Notes: generated by a model from the sequence alone, not told the origin. A stretch of DNA of 36,386 bases from Candidatus Hydrogenedentota bacterium (GCA_029974275.1 JARKSN010000125.1:1-36386), one strand, 5' to 3'. Positions 575 through 35,056 are shown, numbered from the stretch's first letter. Numbers and translations: made by a program.

Positions 575-1758
575 AGTTTGTTGGAATAGGGCTGGGAGTG
601 GCGCTGCTTGTGTTCGCATTCGTTGCGGCGGCGCAGGCTCCGGATTTGGCCAGCATGGATATTGTCATGAAGTCGGTTCCGGACGGTCCCGTCGCGCGCG
701 TGAACGGCGTCTCGATCGACGCCCGGGAGTTCCGCGGGCTTTATCGCAGCGAGATCGAGCGATGGGCCCAGATGAACCAGCAGAAGGCGGTCCCGGACAA
801 CGTGCGAATAGGGATGGCCATCGCCGCGCTTCGTTCGCTCATCATGCAGGAAATCCTCCGCCAGGAGGCCGCCAAGCGCAAGGTCAGCGTGAGCGAGGAG
901 GACCTTCAAAAGGCGTATGCGGCGGAAATGGACAGCATGAAGAAGGCCTTGGGCCAAGACGGAAAACCCTTGACGGAGGCGGAAGTGCTGCAACAGGCGG
1001 GCACGACGAAAGAGGAAGCCTTGGCGGACCTTCGAAAAGGGCTCATGATTCATAAAGTTCGCGAAGCCTTGGTGAAGGAAGCCAACGTTACGGTTTCGGA
1101 CAAGGACATCGCCGGTTTTTTCGAGGCGAACAAGGATAAGTTTCCGCAGGGCGGCGGGGTTCACCTCAAACAGATATTCATCAAAACGGTTCCGGCCCGT
1201 GGCGATGCCGGCGTCGCGAACCGCAACCAGGCGCGCGACAAAGCCAATACGGCGGCGCAGCGCATCCGGGCGGGCCAGAGTTTCGAGTCCGTCGCCAAAG
1301 ACGTTTCCGAGGGACAGGGCAAGGAGAGCGGCGGCGATATCGGGACCATACCCCTTCGCGAGCTTCCCCCGTTTCTCGGCGAGGCCGCGGCGAAGCTGCA
1401 GCCGGGCCAGATGAGCGATGTCATCGAGAGCGACTATGGATTTCATCTCATCAAGCTGGTGGAGAGTTTCCCGGGCGAAGCTCCCACGCTTGAAAAAATG
1501 GGGCCGGCCATCAAGCGCGAGTTGCTGGAGGAGAAAAGCGAAGAGGTCGTGCAGCGGTTTTGCGCGCCGATCATCGAGAACGAGGGAGCCGTCCAGGAAT
1601 TTCTGATTCCCCAGTTGACCCGGCAGATGAATGCCCGTCCCGATCTTCTCCGGCAGCTTGAAAAAAGCGCGCAGGGCGGCGTGGGGCGCCCGGACGGATC
1701 GGCCTCGGGCGCGCCTAAAACCGCTCCGTCTTCCGCCGGGGAAACGCGAACGAAATGA
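571..1758 (+). CDS. SurA/PrsA-like parvulin (PpiC-type) peptidyl-prolyl isomerase / periplasmic chaperone
   Basis: Signal peptide MKFVGIGLGVALLVFAFVAAAQA; SurA-N-like VARVNGVSI; rotamase motifs HLKQIFI, FESVAKDVSEG, GGDIG, SDVIESDYGFHLIKL. ATGA overlaps at both ends. Confidence 0.9.
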   Translation: MKFVGIGLGVALLVFAFVAAAQAPDLASMDIVMKSVPDGPVARVNGVSIDAREFRGLYRSEIERWAQMNQQKAVPDNVRIGMAIAALRSLIMQEILRQEAAKRKVSVSEEDLQKAYAAEMDSMKKALGQDGKPLTEAEVLQQAGTTKEEALADLRKGLMIHKVREALVKEANVTVSDKDIAGFFEANKDKFPQGGGVHLKQIFIKTVPARGDAGVANRNQARDKANTAAQRIRAGQSFESVAKDVSEGQGKESGGDIGTIPLRELPPFLGEAAAKLQPGQMSDVIESDYGFHLIKLVESFPGEAPTLEKMGPAIKRELLEEKSEEVVQRFCAPIIENEGAVQEFLIPQLTRQMNARPDLLRQLEKSAQGGVGRPDGSASGAPKTAPSSAGETRTK

Positions 1759-3779
1759 TCGTTTGGGCCCTTGTCTGGGCGGCGGCGGCGACACAGGCGC
1801 CGGACTATCGCTGGCCGCTGGACTTGCCTCCGATCGTCACGTCCAGCTTTGGCGAACAGCGTTCCGGGCGTCTTCACACCGGGATCGATTTGCGCGCAAG
1901 GGACATCGGCGCGCCGATCAAGGCGCCGGGGGACGGGTATGTGGCGCGCGTCCGGTGTTCGCCGTATGGGTATGGCAAGGCCGTCTACCTCCAACTCGAC
2001 GACGGCTTCATGGCGGTCTTCGGGCACCTCAGCGACTTCATGCCGGACTTGGGCGCGTATGTCCGTGCGGAGCAACACAGGCGCGGACAATACACCGTTG
2101 ACGTGAATCCGCCGCCCGATCGGTTTCGTGTGCGACGAGGCGACATTGTCGCCTACAGCGGCGACACGGGCGCAGGTCCGGCCCATCTGCACTATGAACT
2201 CCGCGACAAGAGCGAGTGCGCGCTCAACCCACGGACGTTTGGCATCGAATGGCCCGACGCGACCCCTCCGGTCATCCGCCGCATCGCCGTCTATCCCGCG
2301 ACGCCGGAATCGCGCGTCGAGAACGGCTGCCTGCCGGTTGTGCGCGAGGCGAAACGATCGGAAGACGGCGTTTACGTGTGCGACGCCGTGCAGGTTTTCG
2401 GACAAGTCATGTTCGGGGTGGACGTCATCGATCCCGCGAACAACGGCGAAAACGTGTTGGGCGTGCATACGGCCGTATTGCGCGCCGACGGCCGGGACGT
2501 GTTCACGGTCCGCAACGATCGCATCAGCTATGCCCGTCTCGATCACGGAGCCGCGTGCTACGATCGCCGTCTGAACCCAACGGCCCCCTTCCTGCTGTTA
2601 TGGCGCTGGCCCAACAATCGCAGCGAAACGATCGCCGCCAATTCCGGCGACGGACGGATCGAGGCTCCGCGCGAAATGAGCGAGGTCCGCATTGTCGCGG
2701 AGGATTTTTTCGGCCATCGCGCCGAGGCGATCGTTCCCTTGACGCCGGAGACGGCGGACGCATCGGGTCCGGAGGGTGAAGCGTGGAAGGAGTCCGCCGC
2801 TTTGAAAACGCAAACACCGCGATTGTTTTCGAGCGAGGAATGGAATCGCCGAGAAGACGCCGATCCGATCGTATTGGAGCGCCGGGCCATGCCGGGCTGG
2901 ATCGCGCTCGGCATGCGCCATGCCAGCCTTCCGGACGCCGCCCCTCCCCTCTTGCTGTCGATTTCATCGGGCGGCGCCTCCATGCGCGCCCAGGCATTCC
3001 GTTGCGTTTCACCCGGCGTACAGCAGGCCGCCTACGCATTGCCCAGGGAGACGACGTCGGTCACGTTGCGCATCGTCTGGCCCCGTCGCGCGGAGGCAAT
3101 AGAGGATCGCTACGCCGTCTTCACGCGCGGCGCCGCTGCGCGGACGGAATCGTGGGGCGACGTTCGGTTAGAGGTTCCGTCCAATGGCCCATTCGATACG
3201 CTGTGTGTCGTCCATTCGGCGCCAGCCGGAACGCCCGCCCCCCCTGCACGCATGCTGGGGGATCCCTTCCGCCTGGATGCGGGAGATGCCCCGATCGATG
3301 CCCCGCTGACCGTATCGACGACCATTCCGCCCCATGCGGAAAAGCCCGCCCGCGTGCATCTGTATCGCGCATCGGAAAAGGGCTGGTCGCGTCTCGACAC
3401 AGAGCAGCAGGGCGGGCGGCTTGTCTGCAAGGTGCGCGAGCTTGGCGTGTTCGCCGCGATGGAGGACATCGAACCGCCGGTTATCGAATGGATCGAGCCA
3501 ACGCCCGGCGGCGCCGAGACATGGCCTCGTCCCGCGATGCGCCTGCGCGTGGCCGACGCCGCCAGCGGCATTGCGGACATCCGCGCGACCTGCCGCGGAC
3601 GATGGTTGCTGATGGATTATGATCCCGAGAAAAACTTGCTTGTTTGGGCGCGCGACGAAGACCTGACAGGACCGTCTGCGCACATCGAGGTTGTCATAGC
3701 GGACCACGCAGGAAACACGGCTTTCCTGCATCAGGAAATCTGCGAGGCAGCTCCGTCCTGCCCTTCCCAGTCGCAATAG
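1755..3779 (+). CDS. M23 family metallopeptidase with long C-terminal region
   Basis: Zn-binding motifs HTGIDL (HxxxD) and HLHYE (HxH); YGYGKAVYL...FGHLS; N-terminal signal sequence. Confidence 0.85.
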   Translation: MIVWALVWAAAATQAPDYRWPLDLPPIVTSSFGEQRSGRLHTGIDLRARDIGAPIKAPGDGYVARVRCSPYGYGKAVYLQLDDGFMAVFGHLSDFMPDLGAYVRAEQHRRGQYTVDVNPPPDRFRVRRGDIVAYSGDTGAGPAHLHYELRDKSECALNPRTFGIEWPDATPPVIRRIAVYPATPESRVENGCLPVVREAKRSEDGVYVCDAVQVFGQVMFGVDVIDPANNGENVLGVHTAVLRADGRDVFTVRNDRISYARLDHGAACYDRRLNPTAPFLLLWRWPNNRSETIAANSGDGRIEAPREMSEVRIVAEDFFGHRAEAIVPLTPETADASGPEGEAWKESAALKTQTPRLFSSEEWNRREDADPIVLERRAMPGWIALGMRHASLPDAAPPLLLSISSGGASMRAQAFRCVSPGVQQAAYALPRETTSVTLRIVWPRRAEAIEDRYAVFTRGAAARTESWGDVRLEVPSNGPFDTLCVVHSAPAGTPAPPARMLGDPFRLDAGDAPIDAPLTVSTTIPPHAEKPARVHLYRASEKGWSRLDTEQQGGRLVCKVRELGVFAAMEDIEPPVIEWIEPTPGGAETWPRPAMRLRVADAASGIADIRATCRGRWLLMDYDPEKNLLVWARDEDLTGPSAHIEVVIADHAGNTAFLHQEICEAAPSCPSQSQ

Positions 3780-5182
3780 CGCACCATCGCCTCCAAACAG
3801 GGAAGGCCGTCGTGATGCCACATCATGGAGGGACAGGCCATGCGGCCCGGACGGCATACCCGGGTTGCGCCCAGCCATGCAAGACGCTCGGCGATGTCCA
3901 TGCTTTCCGGGGGAGCGGCCTCGATCGCAACGTTCTGGAAGTAACCCAGGAACGGACGCAGAAGCGTTTCGATCTCTTCGATCCCGCTGACGGGAACTAT
4001 CGTGATTGCGCGCCCGAGACAGCTCGGCCGCAACGGACGCCGCCGATCGAGGAGAACCAGAAAACGGTCGCCGTCCCTGCTGGAGAAGAGACGCGTCGGC
4101 TCCCCCATCGCGGCAGCGAGTTCGGCGTCGTCCGCCGCTTGGCAATAGCGCACCGATTCGGCGATCGTGGCCGCGCCGCGCGGCAGGACCGTTTCGATGG
4201 CGCGCAAGGCCGTGGTCAGCGCCGCAGCGAGTTGCGCGGCTTCTTCGCCGTCTTTCTCGATCACGAATATCCAATGCGGCGACAGGCACGCCTGCTGATC
4301 GAACATGGCGGCGTCGTAGGCGAGGCGGGCGGCCAGATCGTCCCGGTTCGCGGCATGGACCGCTGCTGCATCGACGACGACGAATCCAAGCTTGTGGCCG
4401 TGCAAGATCAGCCTTGCGCCAGGAGGCACGCGCGAGGAGATGGAAGCGCAGGTTTCCGCGGAACCGAAGGCGATCACGGCGCCGGCTTCTTGAAACGCGG
4501 CGTTTTCGAGGGATTCGTCGCCGCCATGCCAATAGATCACCGCCATGCAGCGGGCCAGCTCGGGAAGACAACGCGCCAGGGATCGTGCATACGCGGCGGC
4601 ATACACGGGCTCGCTGGCCGAGGGCTTGCACAGGATCGGCGATTTCACCAGCAGGGCGCGCATGAACGGCAGATGACTCAACGCAGGGATGTTGCCCGGC
4701 GATAACGCCAGCGTCAGGTCGGGACCGCAAGCCCGCACATAACCCTTCGCTTCGGGCCGCCAGACGAATTTGTCCAACACGGACGGATCGCCGAATTCGT
4801 TCGCGAGCGCTCGCCACATGTCATCCGCCCGCGAAGAATGCTGTTCGATGCGGACGGATTCGCAGACCATTTCACGCGAAAATCCGGTGACCGCGGCCAT
4901 CGCGTCGATGACGGCGTCATAATCGGGAGCCCGGCGCTCCAGCCACTCCTCGGCGGCCATGTCGAGCGCGTGCACGATTTTTTGGATCGGCATGGCGCGC
5001 AGAACCTCGCGCCCCGCTTGCTTTACGTGCCGCGCCAACGCCGCGACGAGTTCCGGTGTCGCGTGCAGTTGCTGCAGCGCGAGAGAGCCGGAGAGCGACG
5101 TCTCGTGTCGTTCAAGTGGATGCGGCGGCGCAAAATCCTCGGGCAGATAAAAGGCGTCGAGCTGGACAGCGGATTTCGGCAC
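3731..5182 (-). CDS. LuxC-family acyl-CoA/acyl-protein reductase (aldehyde-forming)
   Basis: ALDH-like fold motifs SPGNIP, LLVKSPILCKPS, AFGSAET, HGHKLGF; catalytic Cys in FDQQACLSP; C-terminal GATRVCRPGRM...WHHDG. GTG start 3 nt after the luxE-like stop. Confidence 0.88.
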   Translation of the reverse strand: MPKSAVQLDAFYLPEDFAPPHPLERHETSLSGSLALQQLHATPELVAALARHVKQAGREVLRAMPIQKIVHALDMAAEEWLERRAPDYDAVIDAMAAVTGFSREMVCESVRIEQHSSRADDMWRALANEFGDPSVLDKFVWRPEAKGYVRACGPDLTLALSPGNIPALSHLPFMRALLVKSPILCKPSASEPVYAAAYARSLARCLPELARCMAVIYWHGGDESLENAAFQEAGAVIAFGSAETCASISSRVPPGARLILHGHKLGFVVVDAAAVHAANRDDLAARLAYDAAMFDQQACLSPHWIFVIEKDGEEAAQLAAALTTALRAIETVLPRGAATIAESVRYCQAADDAELAAAMGEPTRLFSSRDGDRFLVLLDRRRPLRPSCLGRAITIVPVSGIEEIETLLRPFLGYFQNVAIEAAPPESMDIAERLAWLGATRVCRPGRMACPSMMWHHDGLPCLEAMVRYCDWEGQDGAASQIS

Positions 5183-5185
5183 GGT

Positions 5186-6301
5186 TCATCTCCGTTGTTG
5201 GGCGAGTTCGTCCACGGTCACGCTGCATCCGCGCGCTTCAACGGCGTCGGGGCGTCCGAGTGCGTGAAACCCTTCCGGGGTCGTGAAGCCGATATCGTCG
5301 GTCTGCACAGCGAAGGGGTGTCCTCCATTGGCCAGATCGAGATGGCGCAGGATGCCGATGCTTCCGTGGGGCAAAACGCGCAGCGTTTGCGGATCGACCG
5401 CGCGCGTTCGCGTCCACGGCGCGTTTTGCTTTCCTTCGCGGCAAGGGCGGGATTCCGCGTGCGCCGCCACATTGTCGTCGTAGAATTGGCTTGCGAGTTC
5501 GGTCATTCCCAGCAAATTCACGCATCGTTCGGGCGGCGCGTCCAAAAAATGACGGAAGGAATCCAGCATGGCTTCCCGGCGCGTTTCCTCACGCTTTCCC
5601 TTGAATCCTCCAGCGTCCATGACGCGGCTCGCCGGCGGCAGCGGAAACCGTTTACCGCGCGCATGAAAGTCGTCGAACAGACGGACAAAACCCAAGGTCG
5701 CGCCGATCAGCGTCACCGGCGTCCCGGCGACGCATGCCGCATCAAGAGCGCGTTCGAGGCGGTCCGTCTCAAGCCCGGACGGGCCAAGAAAAAAATCGCT
5801 GTCCGCGATCCCGTATCGCCGAACGAGACGTTCCATGCCGTAAACCATAATCATATGCGGGGCCATGGCCGGCGCGGGGGCGAGCACAAAAATCGCGGTC
5901 CGGCGCTGTGCGTGATCGGGGAAAAGATAACGCGTCGCGTTGACGTCGATCGCCGCGTCCATCAGGGCAAGATCGGCGCGGCTGAAACACGAAACGCCTT
6001 TGTGCCCCGCGCCGCCGGTCGTGCCGGAGGTGTGGAACCGCCGCACGATGGCGTCCGGCGCGATGTGCAGCTCGGTTCGCTTGAACGCCTCGGTCGGCAG
6101 CGCGGGAATCTCGTCCACGGCATTCAGCCGGTCCAGGCGCGCGCCGCGTGCATCGCACCATCCGCGGTACAGCGGGACGTGCGCGTATTGCAGCCGCGCC
6201 AACGCAAACGCGAGTTCCGTGAAGCGCTCCTCGTCGCTCCGGCCTTCGGCGAGGAACGCGGCAATCTCCGCGAAAAGCGCTTCGCCCCAATCATGCGTCA
6301 C
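5186..6301 (-). CDS. LuxE-family acyl-protein synthetase
   Basis: Motifs IPALPTEAFK, FHTSGTTG, DAGGFKG, LGMTELASQFY, VQTDDIG, and C-terminal GRPDAVEARGCS (acyl-accepting Cys). GTG start at 6301 with a GGAGG SD upstream. Confidence 0.88.
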   Translation of the reverse strand: MTHDWGEALFAEIAAFLAEGRSDEERFTELAFALARLQYAHVPLYRGWCDARGARLDRLNAVDEIPALPTEAFKRTELHIAPDAIVRRFHTSGTTGGAGHKGVSCFSRADLALMDAAIDVNATRYLFPDHAQRRTAIFVLAPAPAMAPHMIMVYGMERLVRRYGIADSDFFLGPSGLETDRLERALDAACVAGTPVTLIGATLGFVRLFDDFHARGKRFPLPPASRVMDAGGFKGKREETRREAMLDSFRHFLDAPPERCVNLLGMTELASQFYDDNVAAHAESRPCREGKQNAPWTRTRAVDPQTLRVLPHGSIGILRHLDLANGGHPFAVQTDDIGFTTPEGFHALGRPDAVEARGCSVTVDELAQQRR

Positions 6302-7520
6302 CGGCGGCGTCCTCCCTCGGCTGAATCGTGCACCACTTTGCGTCCAACATCCGCCAGAGCAGGTCTCGCGCCTTTTCCTCTCCCAATGCGCGCCGCAGAG
6401 CTCCATACGTCGTCGCAGGGCCGTTTTTGAAAAACGGCTCCGCGTCGCGGGCAAGCGCTTCCGGGGCGAAATCCATCGGGGCCAACGGCTCAATCAGATC
6501 GGAGTCGTTCACGTCGGGGTAATCGCTCGCCTCGGGCACAAGGGGAGCGTCAACGGCGGCATAGGCAAAGAGCGGCGCGGCGCATCCGAATTTTTGGCTG
6601 AATACATGCCGATAGGCGGCGAATCCGGCGATGGACCCCTCCGCGATCGCCTTGAGCGCCATTGCCAGCATGCCGGTCGCGTCGCCTGCCGCGAAAACGC
6701 CCGGAAGATTCGTCGCGCCGTCGCGTTGAATAACGACGAAGCCATGCGCGTCGCGTGCGAGACCTTCCGCCGCAACGGTCCGCTCCGGCTTGATCTCAAA
6801 AGCCACGTAGTCCACGAACGCCAATTGACATGGAAAAGCGATCCGCTCCGCGCCACACTCGCATATCGCCTCTTCCAGATCGGACGCGCCGGAAAAACGC
6901 GCGGCGCGGCCGAAAAGGACGTTCTCGTTTTGGAATCGGCGGCGCAGGGCGTCCGAAGGCGATTCGTTCAAGAGAAAGGTGAAACGCGTTTCGGGCCGGC
7001 GCCGGCGAACGGCGTTTACGACGGGCAGCAGATTTTCCGTTTTTGCGTTGCCGATGATCAACACATCCCGCACGTTGCGGCCCGCGCACAATGCTTCCAG
7101 ATGCCGCGGAATGTCGTCGTAGCCGTTGTGGGTCAACGACAGGCCCTTGCGAAAATAATCGGCTTCGTTGGCAAGCCGGCGCAATCCCGTGGCCAGCACG
7201 ACGGCGCGCGCGCGACAGCATTCGCGCCCCTCGCTTTCGAGCGCCCATCGAAAGCCCGCGCGGCGGATCGCGTCGACGGGCGCGGGCGTAATAGACAGCG
7301 AGAGCGTGCGCATCTCGTTCAGGAGATTTTGGATGAGCGGAAGGGGCGTCGGGCCTGTCAATCGCGGTGCGCCCAGCGCGGCCAATCCGCCCGCCGGCGC
7401 GGGATCGAACACGGCAACCGAACAGGGCACGCCGCGATAGGCTTTTACCCATCGTGCGCGAACGGCGGCGGCGAGCCCGGCGGGGCCCGCTCCGATCACG
7501 GCGACGTCGATGTGTCGCAT
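6291..7520 (-). CDS. FAD-dependent pyridine nucleotide oxidoreductase, thioredoxin-reductase fold, lacking CxxC
   Basis: DVAVIGAGPAG (FAD binding), VVLATG, TNLPGVFAAGD. No CxxC at the TrxB position. About 80-aa C-terminal extension. ATG at 7520. Confidence 0.8.
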   Translation of the reverse strand: MRHIDVAVIGAGPAGLAAAVRARWVKAYRGVPCSVAVFDPAPAGGLAALGAPRLTGPTPLPLIQNLLNEMRTLSLSITPAPVDAIRRAGFRWALESEGRECCRARAVVLATGLRRLANEADYFRKGLSLTHNGYDDIPRHLEALCAGRNVRDVLIIGNAKTENLLPVVNAVRRRRPETRFTFLLNESPSDALRRRFQNENVLFGRAARFSGASDLEEAICECGAERIAFPCQLAFVDYVAFEIKPERTVAAEGLARDAHGFVVIQRDGATNLPGVFAAGDATGMLAMALKAIAEGSIAGFAAYRHVFSQKFGCAAPLFAYAAVDAPLVPEASDYPDVNDSDLIEPLAPMDFAPEALARDAEPFFKNGPATTYGALRRALGEEKARDLLWRMLDAKWCTIQPREDAAGDA

Positions 7521-7999
7521 ACGCTCTCCAGATACGGCAGCAGCCCGCCCGCATGAAGCACGGCGGCTAGGTACGGATCGAGCGGATCGACCGCCGCCAA
7601 AACCGAACGGCTCGTGCAGATCACCCGCTGTGCGCGCAGGTCCAGCGCGACACGATCCCCGGTCGCTATCGTGGCACACGCCGCACGATCGAGTCCTGCC
7701 GCGATGGGTAGCCCGCGATTGACGGCGTTGCGAAGAAAAATGCGAGAGACGCTCGCGGCAGCGATCGCTGCGACGCCCGCTTCAATCATGCCGCGCGCCA
7801 CGGACTCGCGACTCGATCCAACGCCGAAATTGCGGCCCGCCAAGATGACGATTCCTGCAAGCGTTCCTCTTTCGCGCTGCCCGGCAAGCACGCCGGCTAC
7901 GCGGCGCCGGGCCTCGAGCGAAAAGTAGCGCGACGGCTGCAGGATGTCCGTATTGACGTCGTCGCCCAGGACCAGCGCGGCGCCTTCGATGACTTCCAT
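7496..7999 (-). CDS. Aconitase-family dehydratase small subunit (LeuD/HacB-like)
   Basis: LGDDVNTDILQPSRY, AGRNFGVGSSRE, SRIFLRNAVNRGLP, GGLLPYL. TGATG overlap with the large subunit. Confidence 0.88.
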   Translation of the reverse strand: MEVIEGAALVLGDDVNTDILQPSRYFSLEARRRVAGVLAGQRERGTLAGIVILAGRNFGVGSSRESVARGMIEAGVAAIAAASVSRIFLRNAVNRGLPIAAGLDRAACATIATGDRVALDLRAQRVICTSRSVLAAVDPLDPYLAAVLHAGGLLPYLESVCDTSTSP

Positions 8000-9225
8000 C
8001 ACAACAATTTCCTCGGGTCCGTTAGTTTTCCCGTCGCCATGGCCGCCGCCGCCGCCGCGTTCACGAGATAGATTTCGGCGTCCGGAGCGCCCATGCGGCC
8101 CTCGTAGTTGCGATTTATGGTGGCGGCGCAACGCTCGCCAGGGGCCAGAACGCCCTTGTCGATGGCGCCACACGGACCACAGCTCGGATTGCCGATGCAC
8201 ACGCCCGCAGCGACCAGCGTTGCGATGTAGCCCGCCTCCAGCGCGGCCAGATAGACTTTCGCGCTGGCAGGGATCGCGATGGCCTTCAGGCCGGGGGCGA
8301 CACGGCGCCCATCGAGGATTGCCGCCGCGACGGCGAAATCTTCGAGCCGTCCAGCGGCGCACGAACCCAGGAAGACTTGATGCAGCGGCAGGCCTTCGTA
8401 TGCGCGCAACGCCGCCACGCGGAACGGACTGCCCGGCAGGGCCACGAGCGGTTCAAGCGCCTCCGCGTCGATGACGATTTCCTCATCGTACGACTCTTCC
8501 GCAATGCCCGGAAGAGGGGGCGCGTTTCCGTCGCGTTCCGCCAAAAACGCCTCGGTGACATCGTCGGGCAGGAACAACGCCGCCTCGGCGCCGCATTCCG
8601 CGATCAGGTTGCAGATTGCGAAGCGGTCGCTTTGGCAGATGCGCGAACGGGTTTCGTCGATGAATTCGATGCCGGCGCCATTCAGTTTTTCCGCGCCGCA
8701 CCGGCGGAAGAGTTCGAGAATGACATCCTTGCCCATGACGCCCGGCGGCAGGCTTCCGGCGATCACGATCCGAATCAGACGGGGCGCTCGCAGGGCGATT
8801 TTCCCCGTGATCAGCGCGCCGTAGACATCCGTGCTGCCGAAACCCGCCGCAAAACAGCCCAGCGCGCCCGCGGTGACGGTGTGGCTGTCGCTTCCGATGA
8901 TAAGCGTTCCGGGAAGCGTCCGCGCGTCCTCCGTCAGGAGTTGATGGCAGATGCCTTCGAAAAGGCGCGGCTCCCATCCCATTGTCGCGCAGAGGTCCTG
9001 GACCATGCGCAACATGGCGGCGCGTTCTATCGTGGCCGGAGGAGCGAAATGGTCCGCCGCGATCAACAGGCGATCCGCCGACAGGGCGATTCCGCCGCGC
9101 CGCCGGATGTCATCTTCCATCAGCGCCAGGGCATACTCCGGCAGCAGCGCCAGATCGGGCGCATACCAGCGATAGGCTCCCGCAGCGGGCCCTGCATCGT
9201 GTCGTTTCAAGATTTCAGTCAGCAC
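7999..9225 (-). CDS. Aconitase-family dehydratase large subunit (short LeuC/HacA-like, [4Fe-4S])
   Basis: ADHFAP, GICHQ, GSDSHT, FLGSC, PSCGPC (three cluster Cys), NRNYEGRMG. 408 aa. Confidence 0.9.
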   Translation of the reverse strand: MLTEILKRHDAGPAAGAYRWYAPDLALLPEYALALMEDDIRRRGGIALSADRLLIAADHFAPPATIERAAMLRMVQDLCATMGWEPRLFEGICHQLLTEDARTLPGTLIIGSDSHTVTAGALGCFAAGFGSTDVYGALITGKIALRAPRLIRIVIAGSLPPGVMGKDVILELFRRCGAEKLNGAGIEFIDETRSRICQSDRFAICNLIAECGAEAALFLPDDVTEAFLAERDGNAPPLPGIAEESYDEEIVIDAEALEPLVALPGSPFRVAALRAYEGLPLHQVFLGSCAAGRLEDFAVAAAILDGRRVAPGLKAIAIPASAKVYLAALEAGYIATLVAAGVCIGNPSCGPCGAIDKGVLAPGERCAATINRNYEGRMGAPDAEIYLVNAAAAAAMATGKLTDPRKLL

Positions 9226-9270
9226 AATGGCCTCATTGGGGCGGCGTCGCGCCTGCCGGAACAGCGCCGT

Positions 9271-10464
9271 TCACGAGGTTTTTTCTCGGGCGATTTCAGC
9301 CGCCAGCTCCCAAAACCGCGACAGGGGAAATCCGAAATTGTCTCGGTAGTGCGCATCCAGCGAGGCATGCAGGCGCCGCGCCGCGCTTTTGTCATGCGCC
9401 AGCGCTTCTTGGCGCACGCGATCGAGCAAACGGCGCAGAAAGGCGTCATCGGAAGGATATGCCGTGCCGTGCAGCAACGCGCGCAGATAATGCGTGCCGG
9501 TTGATTTGCCCAGGACCAATTCCCGCGTGCGGCCTACGATCTCCGGGGCGAGTTCCTCGTAGACGCGCGACGCCTTGAGCAGGCCGTCCACGTGAATGCC
9601 GCTTTCGTGCCGGAACGCGTTGCGTCCCACGATGGGCGTAAGCGGCGAGAGAAACATGCCCGACGCCTTTTCGGCCAGTTCGGAGAGACGCGGCAGTTGG
9701 CGCGGGTCGATTCCGTGTTTGCGTCCGGCGAGGAGCGACAGCGACAGGGCCACTTCATGGAGCGGCGCATTGCCGGCGCGCTCGCCAAGTCCGTTCACCG
9801 TGACGCTGACGATTTCGGCGCCCGCCTCGACGGCCGCCAAGGTGTTGGCCGTGGCCAAGCCAAAGTCGTTGTGACAATGCACGCCCGTCTGGCATCGCCC
9901 CGAAGCTGCGCGGACAACCTCCTCGATCAGCTGCGAGAAGCGCGTCGGCAATGCGGCGCCCACCGTGTCGCACACGAACAGCCGCTCGATCCCCGCGTGC
10001 GCGGCGAAGTCCGCCAGGTCGCACACCAGCGGAACGGTTCCGCGCGAGGCATCTTCCGCGACGAGATTGACCTCGAGTCCCTGCGTATGCGCGTAGGCGA
10101 CGAGTTGTTCGCAGCGTTTTTTGATGGCGGCGGGGGTGGTCGCGAACTTGTGCTCGATGTGGATTTCGGAAAAGGGGAACATCAGGAAGACGCTGCCGGC
10201 TCCGATGGAGGCCGCAAGATCGATCTCTTCACGCACGGCGCGCACGGTCACGCCCACCGCTCCGGTTCCCGCCAGCGCCGCGCATTCGCGGCAAAAATCC
10301 GCGTCTTCCGCCGACGTTGCCGGAATTCCGGCATCCACGATGTCCACTCCGGCGTCCAACAACGCCCGAAACAGCGTGCGTTTCTCATCCCGCGTGAACC
10401 ATACGCCGGGGACTTGTTCCCCTTCGCGCAGCGTGTTGTCGAGAATCGCGACATGGGCGTCCAT
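9271..10464 (-). CDS. Homocitrate synthase / LeuA-family acyl-CoA:2-oxoacid condensing enzyme (DRE-TIM), no C-terminal regulatory domain
   Basis: DNTLREGEQ, AEDASR, CDTVG, HCHNDFGLATAN, GLGERAGNA, FRHESGIHVDG. 397 aa. Confidence 0.9.
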   Translation of the reverse strand: MDAHVAILDNTLREGEQVPGVWFTRDEKRTLFRALLDAGVDIVDAGIPATSAEDADFCRECAALAGTGAVGVTVRAVREEIDLAASIGAGSVFLMFPFSEIHIEHKFATTPAAIKKRCEQLVAYAHTQGLEVNLVAEDASRGTVPLVCDLADFAAHAGIERLFVCDTVGAALPTRFSQLIEEVVRAASGRCQTGVHCHNDFGLATANTLAAVEAGAEIVSVTVNGLGERAGNAPLHEVALSLSLLAGRKHGIDPRQLPRLSELAEKASGMFLSPLTPIVGRNAFRHESGIHVDGLLKASRVYEELAPEIVGRTRELVLGKSTGTHYLRALLHGTAYPSDDAFLRRLLDRVRQEALAHDKSAARRLHASLDAHYRDNFGFPLSRFWELAAEIAREKTS

Positions 10465-10470
10465 GCGTCG

Positions 10471-12171
10471 TTAGGTCCATTCCGGCCGCATAGACGGGCC
10501 TTCCTTGCGCAAAGCCGCGCGCGCGTCGGCATAGCGGTGCTGGTCGTCGATGAGGCGCTGTTCCGTCGCGCATCCGCGCCGTGCGGCGATGGCGCGCCGG
10601 CGTTCGAGACAATGTCGGCGCGATTGTTCCGGCGTGAGGCGTTGCCGCGGGTCCGGCGCGAGAAAACAAAATTCCATGCATTTCAGATGCTGGATGTGGG
10701 CCTCGAAATCCAGAATGCCGCCGTCGTCGCGTTCGTCGCCGAAGTAATCGTTTATCTTGAAGCCGAGCGAGGAATACGTATCCGCATGCGGCCCCCCGTG
10801 CGCGCGGCGGAAGTCCTCGAAACACTGTCGATCGGTGATGATGTTGTAGCGCTCGGGATGTTCGTATTGCGGACTTCCGGGCTCCAATTGCACGGTCCAT
10901 GTCATCAGCCGCCGGATGTTGTCGTATGCGTCGCGCAATTCCGTGATGAGGTCGCGCGTTTCCAGGGCTTCTTTCAGCGTTTCACCCGCCAGCGCGATCG
11001 TGAAAAAGACGTCCGTTTGCACGCCGAGGTCCCGCGCCGTTCGGAGCGAATCGCGCAGTTGATCGTTCGTGTAGAAAAAACCTTTGTTCAGGCGGCGGAC
11101 GCGTTCGTTCCCGGAGTCGGGCGACAGGGCCACGTAGCTGTGTTCCGTCGGGAACGTGCGCGCGAACGTTTCCCAAAAGCGTCGCGTCGGCAGCGCCCAG
11201 CTCTCGAAATAGACGTCCACGGCGACCTTGTCACGGCGCAGTTTCGCGAACAGGTCGACATAATAATCGTCCACCGAGGGGGTCGGGTCAAAACACAAGC
11301 TTATCGTGCGATACCCCGCGTCCACGGCGCGGCGGACGTCGTCGACGACGCGGTCCGGGCTGCGCCAGAGCACGCGGTTGCGGACGTTTGCGCGATGAAG
11401 CGTTCCGGCGCTGCCGCCGCAGTAGACGCACTCCGCATGGCACCCTCGACCGGTGCACAACGGGAAGAAGGTTCGCCCCATGGTGTTGCGGGCCTTGTGT
11501 TCGTCTTCGTCGTATTCTTTCGAGAACGCCAGGGGAAATCCAAACGACGCTATGTAGGTCTCGGCATGCCGGAGCGACGAAAAGTCTGCGAAGACAAGGT
11601 CGTCCAAGTCCGCCTGCTCCGCCACGTACGAGTCGTCGCTGCGGCGAATTTCCGCCCCGTAACGACTATACAGCGACGGCACGCGACCCAAGTCCGGCGT
11701 GTCGCGTTGCAACTGTTCCAGAAGCGCCATCACGGGCGTTTCGCCATGGCCTTGCACGACGGCGTCGACGCACGGAAACGTTCGCAGGATTTCTTCCGCG
11801 AAATACGAAGCCGTCAACCCGCCAAGAAAGACGAATGTTTCCGGCGAAACCGCCTTGATCGCCTTCGCCACTTGGAGAACGTCGTAGGCTTGGTAGTGCC
11901 AATAGAGCGGCAGCCCCGCGGCGGCGATGCGGCGTTCGGCGAATTCGGCGGCGAGCGTGTAGTTGCGATCGAGCATCCATTCCACCCCGAGATGGGCGAT
12001 CTCGGCGCGGAAGCCGCGCCGCCGGGCCTGGTGCGCCAGCGCAAGCAGCCCCATCGGGGCGTAGGTGATGTTGAGAAACTCGCCAAGGGGGAGGTACTCG
12101 TTGGCGCATTTCGGGACATGGACGAAAAGGCAATCCAATTCGTTGTATTTTCCGCCGGAAAAATCCGTCAT
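10471..12171 (-). CDS. B12-binding domain radical SAM protein
   Basis: N-terminal cobalamin-binding-like region (PMGLLALA...FVFLGGLTAS...VQGHGE); GRGCHAECVYC (CxxxCxxC); WRSPDRVVDD; SPDSGNERVR. ATG at 12171 with an AGAAGG SD. Confidence 0.9.
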   Translation of the reverse strand: MTDFSGGKYNELDCLFVHVPKCANEYLPLGEFLNITYAPMGLLALAHQARRRGFRAEIAHLGVEWMLDRNYTLAAEFAERRIAAAGLPLYWHYQAYDVLQVAKAIKAVSPETFVFLGGLTASYFAEEILRTFPCVDAVVQGHGETPVMALLEQLQRDTPDLGRVPSLYSRYGAEIRRSDDSYVAEQADLDDLVFADFSSLRHAETYIASFGFPLAFSKEYDEDEHKARNTMGRTFFPLCTGRGCHAECVYCGGSAGTLHRANVRNRVLWRSPDRVVDDVRRAVDAGYRTISLCFDPTPSVDDYYVDLFAKLRRDKVAVDVYFESWALPTRRFWETFARTFPTEHSYVALSPDSGNERVRRLNKGFFYTNDQLRDSLRTARDLGVQTDVFFTIALAGETLKEALETRDLITELRDAYDNIRRLMTWTVQLEPGSPQYEHPERYNIITDRQCFEDFRRAHGGPHADTYSSLGFKINDYFGDERDDGGILDFEAHIQHLKCMEFCFLAPDPRQRLTPEQSRRHCLERRRAIAARRGCATEQRLIDDQHRYADARAALRKEGPSMRPEWT

Positions 12172-12227
12172 GGCCTTCTCTGGAAATCCGCGAGGATCGG
12201 GGCCGCAAGAAATCTGCCGTTGCTGCA

Positions 12228-12256
12228 AGGATAACGTTGCCGACGAATTCTGTCAA
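12228..12256 (-). promoter_or_regulatory. Sigma70-type promoter for the radical SAM/LeuACD/LuxEC operon
   Basis: Minus strand TTGACA (12256-12251), 17 nt, TATCCT (12233-12228). The -35 overlaps the stop codon of the upstream gene. Confidence 0.65.
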
Positions 12257-13362
12257 TGCGAGACAAGCGCCATCTCCACTTCGCGATCCATGGCGCTCTT
12301 GCTTTCCAGCCAGAACGAGGGGAACGCATGAAGGGCGAGATGATCGACAAGGGCGCTGAGCGAAAAATCGCCGTCGATCCGCAGCCGCGCCAACGCGTCG
12401 GCGTAGAAGATGATTTCCGCGCGACGCACGCCTGGAAACGCGGCGATGCAGTCCTGGACAATGGCGGCGTTTTCGCGGCTGCGGATGTTTGCGATAGAGA
12501 GCGTCACCTGGGCGTCGCGCAGGCCCGCAAGCCCCAGAATCGCCATGGTCGCCGCCTTGGGCGCCAGTTTCAGGCATGCATCAAGCGTCGCTTGACGCAT
12601 GCCTTCTTCGGCGTTGACGCTGTGCACCACGGCATCCACGCTGCGATCGAACAACACCGCGGCATCGGCGCCGCGCAGCAGCCGCGCCGATAGCCGAACG
12701 CTGCACGCCTTTGCGTTCGTCGGGCCCGGATCGATCGCGCTGTAGACCGAGGCGATCAGCGCCATGTCGGCCAGGTTTTCCAAAGCCAGCCGCGCCGCGA
12801 GAGGCGTCTCGGCCACAAGCCGCGCCGCAAGTTCCTCCGAGGAGTAGTGCGCGGCCAGTTCGCGCATGCCGCAAACGTCCATGTGACGGTCCCGCAGGGA
12901 ATGGCACAACGCATCCGCCGCCCAATTTTCCGGAGACGCGACACGAACAGGGGCCTCGTCCGTCTTTTCCCCCATCAACACGACCAGTCGCGGTCGGCGC
13001 GTGAGGGTTCTGGCGAGAATCGCCGCCGTCTCGGCGCAGAAAAGGTCTTTGTTCAGAAAGAGATCGACAGAGACCTCGGTCGCATCCGCGCTGGTATCGT
13101 GGCGCAACAGGTTGTAGGAGAGCACATACCGGCCCGGTGCGTGAATCATGGAGCCGAAAGGGGTCAGGTCGCGCGTGGCGGCTATCTCCTCGAGCGCCTG
13201 TGCGATGGCGTTGCGCTCGGCATTCTCGATGGCCGCGACGCGCCCCGCCGCCCCTATGCCCATCGCCACGCCGTTCGCCTGGATGCGCAACGGCCCCTCG
13301 ACGGCAACGTCTACCGCGCCCGGCGCGGCCACTGCGGCGCCGCATGCCGCGATCGCCGTCAA
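12253..13362 (-). CDS. Exported hypothetical protein, resembles FlgT-N/LPP20-like domain proteins (start uncertain)
   Basis: Open frame between the Zn peptidase and the radical SAM gene. Hydrophobic N-terminus; IQANGVA...AAIENAERNAIAQALE pattern; RPRLVVLMGE. TTG at 13362 is a guess for the start. Confidence 0.55.
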   Translation of the reverse strand: MTAIAACGAAVAAPGAVDVAVEGPLRIQANGVAMGIGAAGRVAAIENAERNAIAQALEEIAATRDLTPFGSMIHAPGRYVLSYNLLRHDTSADATEVSVDLFLNKDLFCAETAAILARTLTRRPRLVVLMGEKTDEAPVRVASPENWAADALCHSLRDRHMDVCGMRELAAHYSSEELAARLVAETPLAARLALENLADMALIASVYSAIDPGPTNAKACSVRLSARLLRGADAAVLFDRSVDAVVHSVNAEEGMRQATLDACLKLAPKAATMAILGLAGLRDAQVTLSIANIRSRENAAIVQDCIAAFPGVRRAEIIFYADALARLRIDGDFSLSALVDHLALHAFPSFWLESKSAMDREVEMALVSH

Positions 13363-13445
13363 CGCAACCAGCCCCCACGGCGCAGCCCTTCTTCGAATGC
13401 GGCTGACGGCGCCGCGTGGCGCCGTGACGTTCGCGACGCGCAGCC

Positions 13446-14159
13446 TCAATTGCGTCCGCGCGCGATCAGCACCATGCGCAGCAGCTGCATGGCCGCCATG
13501 GCTGCGGACGCCACGTAGGTCATCGCGGCGGCGGTCAGAACCTTTTTGGCGCCCCGCAGCTCTTCCGCGTCCAGGTATCCGCCGTTGGCCAAGGCGGCCA
13601 GGGCACGACGGCTGGCATTGAATTCGACCGGCAACGTGACCACCGTGAACAGGACCGCAAACGTGAACAGCCAAATGCCGACCTGCATGAGAAACTGCGT
13701 CGCCGGGAAAATCATCCCCACAAAAAACAGCGGAAACGCCAAGGTCGATCCGATGCTCGACAACGGGTACATCATGCCCCGCAGCGACATGGGGAGGTAC
13801 AGACGGGCGTGTTGCACGGCATGGCCGACTTCGTGCGCGGCAATGCCCAAAGCGGCGATGCTCGATCCGTGGTAAATGTCCTCCGAAAGACGCAACGTCC
13901 GATCGCGCGGATCGTAGTGATCCGTCAATTGCCCCGGAATGGCCTCAAGACCGCACGATCCTTCCGGCCGGTTGTCCGACATCACCAACGGTATCTGCGA
14001 ATCCCGCAAAATAAGCCGCGCAACGTCTGCGCCCGTCAGCCCGCTCCGGGTCGAAATGCGGGAATATTTGGCGTAGGCGGACTTGACCTTGAATTGGGCC
14101 CACAGCGCCAGCAACAGCGCGGGAATCACCAACACGTCGTAAGGGGTGAAATACAGCAT
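13446..14159 (-). CDS. Membrane zinc metallopeptidase (YugP / Zn_peptidase_2-like)
   Basis: GQLTDHYDP, AAHEVGHAVQH (HExxH), TLPVEFNASRRAL, VLTAAAMTYVA. Confidence 0.92.
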   Translation of the reverse strand: MLYFTPYDVLVIPALLLALWAQFKVKSAYAKYSRISTRSGLTGADVARLILRDSQIPLVMSDNRPEGSCGLEAIPGQLTDHYDPRDRTLRLSEDIYHGSSIAALGIAAHEVGHAVQHARLYLPMSLRGMMYPLSSIGSTLAFPLFFVGMIFPATQFLMQVGIWLFTFAVLFTVVTLPVEFNASRRALAALANGGYLDAEELRGAKKVLTAAAMTYVASAAMAAMQLLRMVLIARGRN

Positions 14160-14846
14160 TTACGCATCTCCTTCCGCCGCCCGCGAAACGGGCGGACGCA
14201 TCGCACATTTTCCGTTGAACACCGCTCCTTCCTCTATAACAATGGAGCGGGCCCGAATATCGCCCGTGATCTTCCCCGTAGAAACGAGGTGCAGCTTGCC
14301 CGAGGTTGACACGTTTCCAAAAACCTGGCCCGCCAAAGTCATCCGCCGGCCCGCCAGCGCGTCCGCGTTGATGCGGCCCGTCCGGCTAAGGTCCAAGTCT
14401 TCCGAACACTCCATGCGGCCCTCCACGAGCCCATCGACCTTGCACGATGTCGCGCGCACATTGCCGCTCACCAAGGCGCTTGGCCCGAGAAAGAGGACCC
14501 CGTCGACGATGACATCGCCGTCCACCCGTCCGCATATCTCCGTCTCGGACCCGCCGGTCAACGATCCTTCAATGATGACGCCCTCCGGAATGACCATGCG
14601 TTGCGCTTTGACGTTCTTGGCGCGCCGCATGGCGATATCGTCCACAGTGACATGGGGTTTCCCGGCGGATTCAGCGGCGACATCGTGGCGGCGATTGCTG
14701 CCCCGGCTGGACTGCAGCATCTCCTGGAAACTCTGGTTGATGCGCGCAAACCACGGGCCTCGCTGCGACGCGCGGTTCAGTTCCTCGAACGCATCCAGCG
14801 CATTCGGTTCCGGCCGGCTGTCCGTCTTGTCTGGTTCCTGCGTCAT
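14160..14846 (-). CDS. Bactofilin (polymer-forming cytoskeletal protein) with extended beta-helix
   Basis: Repeated G-x-V/I-x-G-x-V/I windings ending in SIVIEEGAVFNGKCAM; polar N-terminal tail. ATG at 14846, 2 nt after the ATPase stop. Confidence 0.88.
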   Translation of the reverse strand: MTQEPDKTDSRPEPNALDAFEELNRASQRGPWFARINQSFQEMLQSSRGSNRRHDVAAESAGKPHVTVDDIAMRRAKNVKAQRMVIPEGVIIEGSLTGGSETEICGRVDGDVIVDGVLFLGPSALVSGNVRATSCKVDGLVEGRMECSEDLDLSRTGRINADALAGRRMTLAGQVFGNVSTSGKLHLVSTGKITGDIRARSIVIEEGAVFNGKCAMRPPVSRAAEGDA

Positions 14847-14848
14847 GG

Positions 14849-35037: not shown

Positions 35038-35056
35038 CCGTCGAGGAGAATGGCTC

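Follow-up and report, generated by a model that had tools for sequence, protein, structure and literature searches.

An apparently acquired gene cassette joining LeuA/LeuCD-type enzymes with LuxE and LuxC homologs in a Hydrogenedentota bacterium: a candidate route from an aromatic 2-oxoacid to an aldehyde

The 36,386-nucleotide stretch of DNA analyzed in this work (hereafter called the window; GCA_029974275.1 JARKSN010000125.1:1-36386) comes from a Candidatus Hydrogenedentota bacterium and contains seven co-oriented genes on the minus strand, spanning positions 3731-12171 (Table 1). In the order of transcription they encode a B12-binding radical S-adenosylmethionine (SAM) protein, a synthase from the LeuA/homocitrate synthase (HCS) superfamily, LeuC-like and LeuD-like subunits of an aconitase-family hydro-lyase, a flavoprotein, and homologs of LuxE and LuxC. 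All seven families named in the initial annotation of this DNA are confirmed by Pfam and NCBIfam (B12-binding and Radical_SAM, HMGL-like and HCS_D2, Aconitase, Aconitase_C, Pyr_redox_2, LuxE, and LuxC), and every protein of the operon scores under the curated cut-off of every equivalog model in NCBIfam. With the start codons chosen from the translations of open reading frames (ORFs), the gene coordinates agree with the junctions described previously, i.e. a 6-nt gap, a 45-nt gap, overlaps of 1, 25, and 11 nt, and a 3-nt gap. On the other hand, position 12256, proposed earlier as the end of the operon, belongs to a promoter-like hexamer and does not correspond to the end of a gene. The promoter-like site itself is indeed present at 12256->12228 of the minus strand, directly past the stop codon of the upstream gene; however, the region 3400-12700 contains two sites of this type vs 1.8 expected from shuffled sequences, so that the site alone is not beyond chance and only its position argues for it. 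Searches with Rfam found no RNA elements, including riboswitches, near the cassette at the gathering score in the window and 12 cluster loci, the sole match being a tRNA in one of the latter (L027).

Table 1. Genes and promoter-like site of the cassette in the window
Feature	Position	Strand	Remarks
B12-binding radical SAM protein	10471-12171	minus	566 aa, ATG start; ORF opens at TTG 12228; predicted accessory tailoring enzyme
Putative alkyl/arylmethyl-malate synthase, DRE-TIM (LeuA/HCS) superfamily ("HCS-like")	9271-10464	minus	397 aa, ATG start
LeuC-like large subunit, aconitase-family hydro-lyase	7999-9225	minus	408 aa, GTG start
LeuD-like small subunit, own substrate loop	7496-7999	minus	167 aa, ATG start
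Thioredoxin-reductase-fold flavoprotein without redox CxxC	6291-7520	minus	409 aa, ATG start
LuxE-like acyl-protein synthetase (predicted)	5186-6301	minus	371 aa, GTG start
LuxC-like acyl-thioester reductase (predicted, aldehyde-forming)	3731-5182	minus	483 aa, GTG start
Sigma-70-like promoter match TTGACA-N17-TATCCT	12228..12256	minus	10/12 positions; 82-nt gap upstream of first gene

To assess the conservation of the cassette, contigs from one genome per species were scanned three times (with an alignment of the radical SAM protein and with two alignments of LuxC) and then searched by tblastn with the window proteins (E <= 1e-6); loci sharing at least 1 kb at >= 99.5% identity were merged. 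The 224 fetched loci correspond to 176 distinct places, 58 of which possess a five-gene core composed of the synthase, LeuC, LeuD, LuxE, and LuxC. The majority of the core places (42 of 58) also contain the radical SAM protein and the flavoprotein, i.e. the seven-gene form of the window's type, and 16 of these 42 carry genes from the Peptidase_U32 (U32) family. Six other core places have the flavoprotein without the radical SAM protein (one of them with U32; some of these contigs stop at the cluster), while ten have neither and carry a gene for a protein similar to solute-binding proteins (SBP-like). U32-family genes occur in 17 core places in all. Across the census the flavoprotein and the SBP-like gene are mutually exclusive and the radical SAM protein is always accompanied by the flavoprotein; among the 80 loci fetched with the radical SAM protein, 21 contain all seven genes. 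The gene set is beyond chance, because all seven genes are kept together in 42 other distinct genome places. Sequence comparisons thus indicate that the seven genes are inherited together, with their Fe-S, thiol, and radical SAM catalytic residues conserved. The earlier view of a seven-gene unit has to be modified with respect to its composition: the conserved core comprises five genes, to which the radical SAM protein and the flavoprotein are added as accessory components (tailoring or alternative), and many clusters from anaerobes carry U32 as an eighth family.

The order of the modules shifts while the genes stay linked (L013, L023, L033, L042, L202, L225). In particular, the synthase-LeuC-LeuD block precedes the radical SAM gene in L023, L033, L037, and L042, the flavoprotein-LuxE-LuxC block lies upstream in L013, and the radical SAM gene comes last in L202, L212, and L225. 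An all-against-all comparison of the window and 25 type-A loci revealed no eighth family common to all of them, the other shared components being antisense to the seven genes, and the inserts found in some clusters (AAA_14/DUF4143, HepT/MNT, metallophosphatase) turned out, after a family scan, to be genes of toxin-antitoxin systems or otherwise unrelated. According to the record labels, the seven-gene form is carried by Myxococcota, Gemmatimonadota, Thermodesulfobacteriota, Wallbacteria, and some Alphaproteobacteria or Enterobacterales, and the five-gene core additionally by Acidobacteriota, Actinophytocola, Mycoavidus, and a Xenococcaceae cyanobacterium. Incomplete sets were found in a Binatia contig, which ends after five of the seven genes (L040), and in a UBP16 locus without matches to the radical SAM protein or LeuD (L241). 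The literature searched on the gene combination, a search outside which lie subscription-only papers and preprint supplements, contains no description of such a cluster, in agreement with the previous statement that none is known. We regard the cluster as an orphan pathway of wide distribution.

In its own genome (100% complete, 342 contigs) the cassette coexists with separate housekeeping genes for leucine biosynthesis, whose presence had been named as a check: an equivalog leuA is located on contig C19 (655.8 bits vs the cut-off of 598.7) and an equivalog leuC on contig C146 (761.7 bits vs 560.25), and LeuB-like genes are found on C91 (286.9 bits), C287, and C61. The ClpC-like gene of the contig places it in Candidatus Hydrogenedentota, with the best named matches at 66-69% identity. 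Among the 135 genomes from this phylum, the LuxC-family profile matches a single one, that from which the window comes (one of 86 among the high-quality genomes), which suggests that the cassette was acquired horizontally. Likewise, no ortholog of the radical SAM protein was found in 40 relatives from the same family or order, with the best match of 46.4 bits compared to 1326.6 bits for the protein itself. The upstream flank (ParA-like protein, bactofilin, Zn-peptidase) keeps its synteny in relatives without the cassette. The exact borders of the insertion were not found, as the M23/SurA flank falls outside the 20-kb stretches of the eight relatives that keep the ParA-bactofilin-Zn-peptidase genes. 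Judging from these comparisons, the cassette is horizontally acquired rather than housekeeping. Its 3' end in LuxC overlaps by 49 nt (window 3731-3779) a convergent plus-strand gene for an M23 peptidase (674 aa, 1755-3779). Directly upstream of the operon there is a 473-aa ORF (12253-13674) without a match in Pfam or NCBIfam; it is 26-27% identical to a gene that follows the Zn-peptidase at the same place in three of the eight relatives, and this shared position indicates that it is native and lies outside the cassette. DNA nearly identical to the window is present in wastewater, activated-sludge, and digester metagenomes, and four runs from three studies hold at least 0.50 of the sampled words.

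The synthase contains the HMGL-like (PF00682, 228.2 bits) and HCS_D2 (PF22617, 61.2 bits) domains, with both the DRE-TIM fold and the post-HMGL domain present, and its best match in the Protein Data Bank (PDB) is the homocitrate synthase from Sulfolobus (6KTQ, 224.8 bits). Its scores are under the equivalog cut-offs for both nifV (347.5 vs 462.9) and leuA_bact (251.5 vs 598.7). We mapped five specificity positions on 6KTQ and on the isopropylmalate synthase (IPMS) 3RMJ and compared them with Table 1 of PMC12961565; the mapping is valid, because the alignments of 6KTQ and 3RMJ show the tabulated residues at all five columns. According to that table, positions 1-5 are H,R,T,S,H in HCS, L,E,S,N,E in IPMS, A,D,A,M,S in HphA, and A,N,A,F,S in an HphA homolog proposed to use an aryl-2-oxoacid. 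The corresponding residues of the window synthase (T73, N133, V135, F163, S220) agree with HCS and with IPMS at none of the five positions, with the aryl-type HphA homolog at three, and with HphA at one, as compared through the tabulated residues rather than through the HphA sequence. Assignment as a homocitrate synthase (LysS/NifV) or an isopropylmalate synthase was rejected on these grounds together with the scores; thus the label "homocitrate-synthase-like" describes correctly the family of the protein, but not its specificity. Among 26 type-A synthases, position 1 is occupied by S in 24 sequences and by T in the other two (never by His or Leu), and position 3 by V in 23 and by A in three. 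Position 4 holds F in 14 sequences, Y in eight, and another residue in four, and position 5 holds T in 20 and S in six. The window-type pocket differs from the listed HphA homolog in having S/T rather than A at position 1 and V rather than A at position 3. Type-B synthases read T,[HNGS],[VI],[IVM],[TS]. As far as can be judged from the tabulated residues, the pocket of the window synthase is nearest to HphA-type arylpyruvate enzymes.

The LeuC-like subunit (Aconitase, 238.1 bits in Pfam; PRK00402, 370.7 bits vs the cut-off of 385) has the three ligands of the [4Fe-4S] cluster, C289, C349, and C352, invariant in 26 sequences. The LeuD-like subunit (Aconitase_C, 44.1 bits in Pfam) possesses the loop that, reportedly, determines the substrate specificity in the enzymes of M. 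jannaschii. This loop reads YFSL in the window and mostly [FY][FY]SL(D) among 26 sequences, a form that prevails in both cluster types; its first residue is H in L011 and L042, T takes the place of L in L041, and type B shows further variants. The solved relatives have YLRT (2PKP, the homoaconitase from M. jannaschii), YLVY (3VBA, an isomerase), and YNLT (1V7L). We have rejected the homoaconitase type (YLRT) and the isopropylmalate isomerase type (YLVY/YLVM) for LeuD, as the loop of the window protein matches neither and lacks the arginine of homoaconitase. Agreement with HCS and IPMS at none of the tabulated positions, together with the non-matching LeuD loop, makes lysine-, leucine-, or coenzyme-B-like chemistry unlikely, and an aryl- or indolyl-pyruvate fits better.

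The LuxE-like protein matches the LuxE family with 49.5 bits in Pfam and chain E of 7XC6 with 53.9 bits; for the LuxC-like protein the respective values are 264.3 bits (LuxC) and 73.7 bits (chain A). As in the LuxC-LuxE fatty acid reductase of luminous bacteria (7XC6), members of the same two families are encoded by adjacent genes, and the catalytic Cys and the Gly-Cys motif are kept: C299 of LuxC and C359 within the C-terminal (R/K)GC(S/A) motif of LuxE are invariant in 22 sequences. The latter motif agrees with TRxxKGCxLS of LuxE from P. phosphoreum, which according to PMC9157457 includes the acylated Cys364. We predict that the LuxE-like protein catalyzes adenylation followed by self-acylation on the C-terminal Cys. 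Unlike the Lux system, the operon and its conserved neighbors include neither LuxD nor LuxAB, and the scores for the Lux equivalogs fall far under the cut-offs (LuxC 103.2 vs 750, LuxE 57.3 vs 550); the substrate of LuxE/LuxC is probably not myristate.

The radical SAM protein, a cobalamin-dependent enzyme of class B, comprises the B12-binding domain (PF02310, 43.2 bits) and the Radical_SAM domain (PF04055, 58.3 bits), and its best NCBIfam match is TIGR04190 (the Ta0216 family; 187.6 bits, under the cut-off of 500). The CxxxCxxC motif (C244-x3-C248-x2-C251) and the C-terminal C498, C502, and C521 are invariant in 26 sequences. In the AlphaFold2 (AF2) model (mean predicted local distance difference test, pLDDT, 90.7) the protein shares with TsrM, MgmA, CysS, and TokK the three-domain fold with an N-terminal B12 domain and the CxxxCxxC motif; it differs from them in its low identity and in its own C-terminal region with the three invariant Cys residues. 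According to Foldseek, the nearest folds are those of the cobalamin-dependent methylases TsrM (E = 2e-20), MgmA, CysS, and TokK (these four at 15-17% identity), with AprD4 and OxsB behind them. All these solved neighbors, at 12-17% identity, make clear the fold class of the protein, but not its reaction type. CysS and TokK were crystallized with pantetheinylated substrates, according to the titles of the PDB entries. In the FastTree phylogeny of 95 sequences, the window protein belongs to a well-supported clade of 34 rows of the Myxococcota/Gemmatimonadota type, while the cluster proteins of Thermodesulfobacteriota form a separate clade of 13 rows, which falls into the opposite half of the tree and is surrounded there by non-cluster paralogs. 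The label "cluster" requires eight changes on this tree compared to the mean of 31.4 for shuffled labels. The branching order is tentative, because the tree is midpoint-rooted and has several long branches. The window's own genome has 12 matches to the TIGR04190 profile, three of them clustered on contig C122 (15843-22130).

The flavoprotein (Pyr_redox_2, 46.7 bits in Pfam; TRX_reduct, 50.8 bits vs the cut-off of 343.45) was modeled by AF2 (pLDDT 88.7), and the top structures in Foldseek are low-Mr thioredoxin reductase (TrxR), FFTR, and FNR2 at 17-23% identity. Its identification as a low-Mr thioredoxin reductase was rejected: the fold fits, but the redox CxxC is missing from the NADPH domain. 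CxxC is absent from the window protein and from 17 aligned orthologs, and the second dinucleotide motif is degenerate. Invariant in the family are R21, R23, K26, D237, Y238, and the motif LFAY, and the C-terminus carries an additional domain of ~90 aa. The SBP-like protein is kept in 14 loci; it has no signal peptide, and its nearest solved relatives are ferric-ion-binding proteins (35 bits). The lack of the signal peptide and the distance of the relatives suggest that it is a cytoplasmic enzyme or binding protein. In the ESM Atlas the flavoprotein falls among generic clusters of FAD/NAD(P) oxidoreductases and the SBP-like protein among generic solute-binding clusters. One or two Peptidase_U32 genes follow LuxC on its 3' side in 15 of the 24 loci examined from the Thermodesulfobacteriota clade. 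They have no match in NCBIfam and are absent from the window. They resemble UbiU/UbiV, U32-family proteins described as O2-independent hydroxylases in PMC6747719 and PMC10990095, in being of the same family and either single or paired.

Clues to the substrate come from the variant clusters, whose low-GC members gave clean annotations. The locus of a Xenococcaceae cyanobacterium known from a metagenome-assembled genome (MAG) (L306, 779-13968) encodes ScyB, LuxE, LuxC, the synthase, an AetF-like protein, LeuC, LeuD, the SBP-like protein, 3-deoxy-D-arabino-heptulosonate 7-phosphate (DAHP) synthase, and TrpE. Its first gene codes for a ScyB-equivalog tryptophan dehydrogenase (641.7 bits vs the cut-off of 600), and the 778 nt that precede it contain no same-strand ORF of at least 60 aa. 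Its 655-aa protein matches AetF over the full length (942.7 bits, 9VWW), AetF being a tryptophan 5,7-dihalogenase according to PMC10306068, and its TrpE (anthranilate synthase) scores 851.2 bits vs 739.15. As judged from these genes, tryptophan is clearly the predicted starting amino acid, and the locus probably encodes a pathway to a halogenated indole-derived compound. The flavoprotein of the window-type clusters shows no BLASTP similarity to this AetF homolog. Acidobacterial variants add a HisC-type aminotransferase, some of them together with an O-methyltransferase and a flavin monooxygenase. For instance, the Chloracidobacterium locus (L282) contains genes for a HisC-type aminotransferase (322.5 bits vs the cut-off of 276.55), the synthase, LeuC, LeuD, LuxE, a 604-aa beta-propeller protein, LuxC, an FAD_binding_3 monooxygenase, a Methyltransf_2 O-methyltransferase, and the SBP-like protein. 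The 604-aa protein, with its beta-propeller repeats, and the 655-aa protein of the cyanobacterial locus are not homologous to each other. The Mycoavidus locus (L312) has LuxE, LuxC, the synthase, LeuC, LeuD, and the SBP-like gene, and an O-methyltransferase gene lies 3' of LuxC in 17 loci from Saccharothrix/Actinosynnema. The gene content of the variants and the pocket comparison together indicate that, in at least some members, the starting compound is an aromatic amino acid turned into a 2-oxoacid. For the window-type clusters an aromatic substrate is suggested by extrapolation from these variants.

We propose that the probable role of the operon is to convert an aromatic 2-oxoacid to a modified aldehyde. 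According to this scenario, the synthase would condense an arylpyruvate (phenyl-, hydroxyphenyl-, or indolyl-pyruvate, derived from an aromatic amino acid) with acetyl-CoA to 2-(arylmethyl)malate, which LeuCD would dehydrate or isomerize to an arylmethyl-maleate or a 3-substituted malate. LuxE would then make an acyl-AMP of one carboxylate and subsequently a thioester with Cys359, from which LuxC would reductively release the acyl group as an aldehyde. It is tempting to speculate that a sixth core step is taken by the flavoprotein or, in other clusters, by the SBP-fold protein as its non-homologous stand-in, and that this step might be redox chemistry or ring closure and aromatization of a cis-formyl-acrylate or a hydroxy-aldehyde. 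Equally speculatively, the radical SAM protein could add a methyl group or form a C-C bond, possibly on the LuxE-tethered intermediate, and in many anaerobes the U32 proteins could add hydroxyl groups without O2. The scenario as a whole, i.e. a mobile cassette of specialized small-molecule metabolism, unrelated to amino-acid housekeeping, that leads from arylpyruvate through arylmethylmalate and isomerized, tailored intermediates to an aldehyde, has in our opinion about an even chance of being correct. It retains the outline of one pathway put forward in the initial annotation, as the genes form a conserved unit and nothing that we found refutes the outline, but with chemistry that is probably aromatic and not of the lysine or leucine kind, and the order of the steps is the one that we infer.

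In a more daring variant of this scenario, the aldehyde made by LuxE/LuxC would react with the aromatic nucleus to form a new six-membered ring on it, with either the flavoprotein or the SBP-fold protein assisting, and the products would be naphthoate- or carbazole-carboxylates; we regard such a novel benzannulation route as a long shot. SBP-fold enzymes, MqnA and MqnD, act in the formation of naphthoate in the futalosine pathway. The products could be finished without O2 in anaerobes, by the U32 hydroxylases and the B12-radical SAM methylase, and in aerobes by the flavin monooxygenase and the O-methyltransferase. If true, a redox or signaling molecule of the quinone-like or carbazole type would be made independently of O2 in many uncultured phyla.

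The combination of a LeuA-type synthase and a LeuCD-type isomerase for a specialized 2-oxoacid resembles the cyanobacterial Hph pathway to homophenylalanine and homotyrosine, which comprises the benzylmalate synthase HphA, the isomerase HphCD, and the dehydrogenase HphB. Unlike the Hph clusters, the cassette has no HphB; it has LuxE/LuxC, the radical SAM protein, and the flavoprotein, and we expect it to yield an aldehyde in place of an amino acid. Phosphinothricin and pantaphos-type pathways combine a LeuA-like synthase and an aconitase-like enzyme with a B12-dependent radical SAM P-methylase or a flavin enzyme. Unlike these clusters, the cassette lacks phosphoenolpyruvate (PEP) mutase, and the score of its radical SAM protein for the PhpK family is negligible (19.3 bits). 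We have rejected a phosphonate pathway, as the PEP mutase model TIGR02320 has no match in the complete genome and none in the cluster.

Several observations weigh against the aromatic scenario for the window. The residue mapping relies on pairwise HMMER alignments and on the table of a single paper (PMC12961565), the window synthase is only ~40% identical to the type-B enzymes, and the two differ at pocket position 4 (F/Y vs I/V/M). Furthermore, the seven-gene clusters have no linked gene for aromatic precursor supply or transamination, and every carrier of the seven-gene form is a MAG. Records without a MAG mark (Methylobacter, Saccharothrix, Robertmurraya) showed LuxE-LuxC pairs or type-B clusters only, and L312 from Mycoavidus cysteinexigens is a MAG record as well. 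Substrates of the classical LuxC and LuxE are fatty acids. A LeuB-type dehydrogenase is encoded in none of the clusters scanned (26 type-A sources and the variants). Thus, the 2-oxoacid chain elongation considered previously is not borne out; only condensation and isomerization or dehydration are encoded. Finally, the non-cluster paralogs of the radical SAM protein point towards lipids: in 43 loci they adjoin genes for amine-oxidase-type flavoproteins (26 loci), MMPL (14), U32 (11), and LpxL-type acyltransferases (7).

The last observation favors an aliphatic or lipid-type aldehyde, in which case a branched or elongated aliphatic acid, built by the synthase and LeuCD, would be methylated or cross-linked by the radical SAM protein and reduced by LuxE/LuxC to a lipid precursor or a volatile. 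This idea also accommodates the homology of LuxC and LuxE to fatty acid reductase, the nesting of the non-cluster radical SAM paralogs among the cluster-associated proteins in the tree, and those paralogs from four Thermodesulfobacteriota MAGs (L065, L068, L069, L070) which adjoin genes for LuxC, FabA-like, short-chain dehydrogenase/reductase (SDR), and acyltransferase proteins. Owing to this genomic context and the tree, an aliphatic substrate stays a serious rival, although on balance an unlikely one: the window cassette contains no gene for fatty acid synthase, acyl carrier protein, an acyltransferase, or an exporter, the core variants carry tryptophan/aromatic genes and O-methyltransferases but no lipid genes, and the synthase pocket resembles, by the tabulated residues, that of aryl-2-oxoacid enzymes. 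Unlikely to a similar degree is an Hph-like homologation aided by a housekeeping LeuB-type dehydrogenase and an aminotransferase, which would yield a homo-aromatic amino acid or 2-oxoacid whose alpha-carboxylate LuxE/LuxC would reduce to an (amino)aldehyde that cyclizes or dimerizes. The first two enzyme types are the same as in the Hph pathway (as outlined in PMC12961565), the genome has the LeuB-like genes mentioned above, and in the variants the core is accompanied by either a HisC-type aminotransferase or a tryptophan dehydrogenase; however, these two open the operons and could equally well supply the 2-oxoacid, and no dehydrogenase of the HphB type, encoded in the Hph clusters, is linked in the places examined.

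The cassette might also run in the degradative direction, by aldehyde oxidation, hydration, and lyase cleavage of an acid, either aromatic or alkyl-substituted, in anaerobic, syntrophic, or wastewater bacteria. DmdAB hydratases participate in fermentative degradation. Members of Syntrophorhabdus and Syntrophaceae, represented by MAGs, are among the carriers, the window DNA is present in wastewater, sludge, and digester metagenomes, and the family name of TIGR02087 puts LeuD-type small subunits together with DmdB. We consider a catabolic role very doubtful nonetheless, as LuxE, in the description of PMC9157457, activates a free acid at the expense of ATP and so works in the direction of biosynthesis, the linked DAHP synthase, TrpE, halogenase, and O-methyltransferases are typical of biosynthesis, and there is no conserved substrate transporter or regulator. 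A further explanation, namely that paralogous genes for leucine, lysine, or coenzyme-B-type 2-oxoacid elongation happen to lie beside unrelated neighbors, is almost certainly wrong. It would account for the family-level likeness to LeuA/NifV and LeuCD, but not for the equivalog leuA and leuC elsewhere in the genome, the scores under all the equivalog cut-offs, the non-matching specificity residues (relative to the published table) and LeuD loop, the patchy, horizontal distribution, and the strict linkage to LuxE/LuxC in 58 places.

The seven-gene form is intact in at least 43 genome places, counting the window, and the five-gene core was found in all 58 fetched places mentioned above. The carriers of the cassette span Myxococcota, Gemmatimonadota, Thermodesulfobacteriota, Wallbacteria, Acidobacteriota, Actinomycetota, Cyanobacteriota, Pseudomonadota, and the Hydrogenedentota-like genome of the window, and are mostly uncultured. 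It joins LeuA/LeuCD-type condensation, on a non-canonical and probably aromatic 2-oxoacid, with carboxylate reduction by LuxE/LuxC, a pairing unreported in the literature searched. As it has no polyketide synthase, nonribosomal peptide synthetase, or terpene core, it would probably escape core-based cluster finders, as pointed out in the initial annotation. The tailoring sets seem interchangeable, with the B12-radical SAM protein and U32 in carriers labeled as anaerobes and the flavin monooxygenase and O-methyltransferase in the Chloracidobacterium type, which recalls the aerobic and anaerobic versions of ubiquinone synthesis. Identification of the product would assign functions to the TIGR04190-like clade of B12-radical SAM proteins, to the TrxR-fold protein without redox cysteines, and to the cytoplasmic SBP-fold protein, and would supply a further class of metabolites for bacteria that abound in wastewater, sediments, and marine habitats.

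Homologs of LuxE and LuxC were also encountered in other genomic contexts. In three Bacillaceae, Robertmurraya korlensis, Bacillus coreaensis, and R. beringensis (L215, L216, L219; ~3250-15500), a LuxE-LuxC pair 30-33% identical to that of the window resides in a thiamine operon with the order thiM-thiE-thiD / thiG-thiH-luxE-luxC-ABC transporter with NMT1/ThiY-type binding protein-SDR-tenI-thiF. Two thiamine pyrophosphate (TPP) riboswitches are present in each of these loci, and one of the two immediately precedes thiG (65.6-83.4 bits vs the gathering score of 54.3). This arrangement suggests a thiamine-related step from a carboxylate to an aldehyde (and on to an alcohol), perhaps in salvage; a literature search on these thiamine-operon genes found no paper linking LuxE-LuxC with thiamine genes. 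A thiamine role for the window cassette was considered because the Bacillaceae keep LuxE-LuxC inside a TPP-riboswitch operon, and was rejected as unsupported; the window's own genome has ThiC and ThiG.

The four Thermodesulfobacteriota MAGs mentioned above contain a large, co-oriented, lipid-like cluster with three B12-radical SAM genes (2831-20119 in L068). It encodes LuxE, LuxC, SDR, DUF3592, U32, MMPL, an amine-oxidase-type flavoprotein, LpxL-type and FabD-like acyltransferases, and an ATP-grasp protein; L069 has in addition a FabA-like gene, and the opposite strand carries upstream of the cluster genes for a thioesterase and a glycosyltransferase. LuxE is beside LuxC in L065, L068, and L069, while the L070 sequence begins inside LuxC. 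A flavoprotein-LuxE-LuxC-U32-U32 module without the synthase or LeuCD occurs in a scaffold of Desulfobacterium sp. TRIP AH-1 (L173/L270) and in Desulfobacteraceae UBA5623 (L174), with an ISL3 transposase upstream and a different, 444-aa B12-radical SAM protein downstream in L173; this module is possibly a remnant, or else these genes are used independently there. In Methylobacter sp. and M. luteus (L293, L301) a LuxE-LuxC pair, likewise without the synthase or LeuCD, is located between genes for an AMP-binding ligase, an HD-domain protein, and a cytochrome P450. The Saccharothrix/Actinosynnema loci (L224-L250, ~7460-11900) have a glyoxalase-fold gene, a protein kinase, and a major facilitator superfamily gene close by, and in one of them (L232) LuxE and LuxC share a single open frame of 921 aa, possibly a fusion or an effect of ORF calling in GC-rich DNA. 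At the far end of the window (33368-36298) there are three plus-strand ORFs of arsenic-related appearance, with a low-molecular-weight phosphatase/ArsC-type domain, a Methyltransf_31 SAM methyltransferase, and an SBF/Acr3-type permease.

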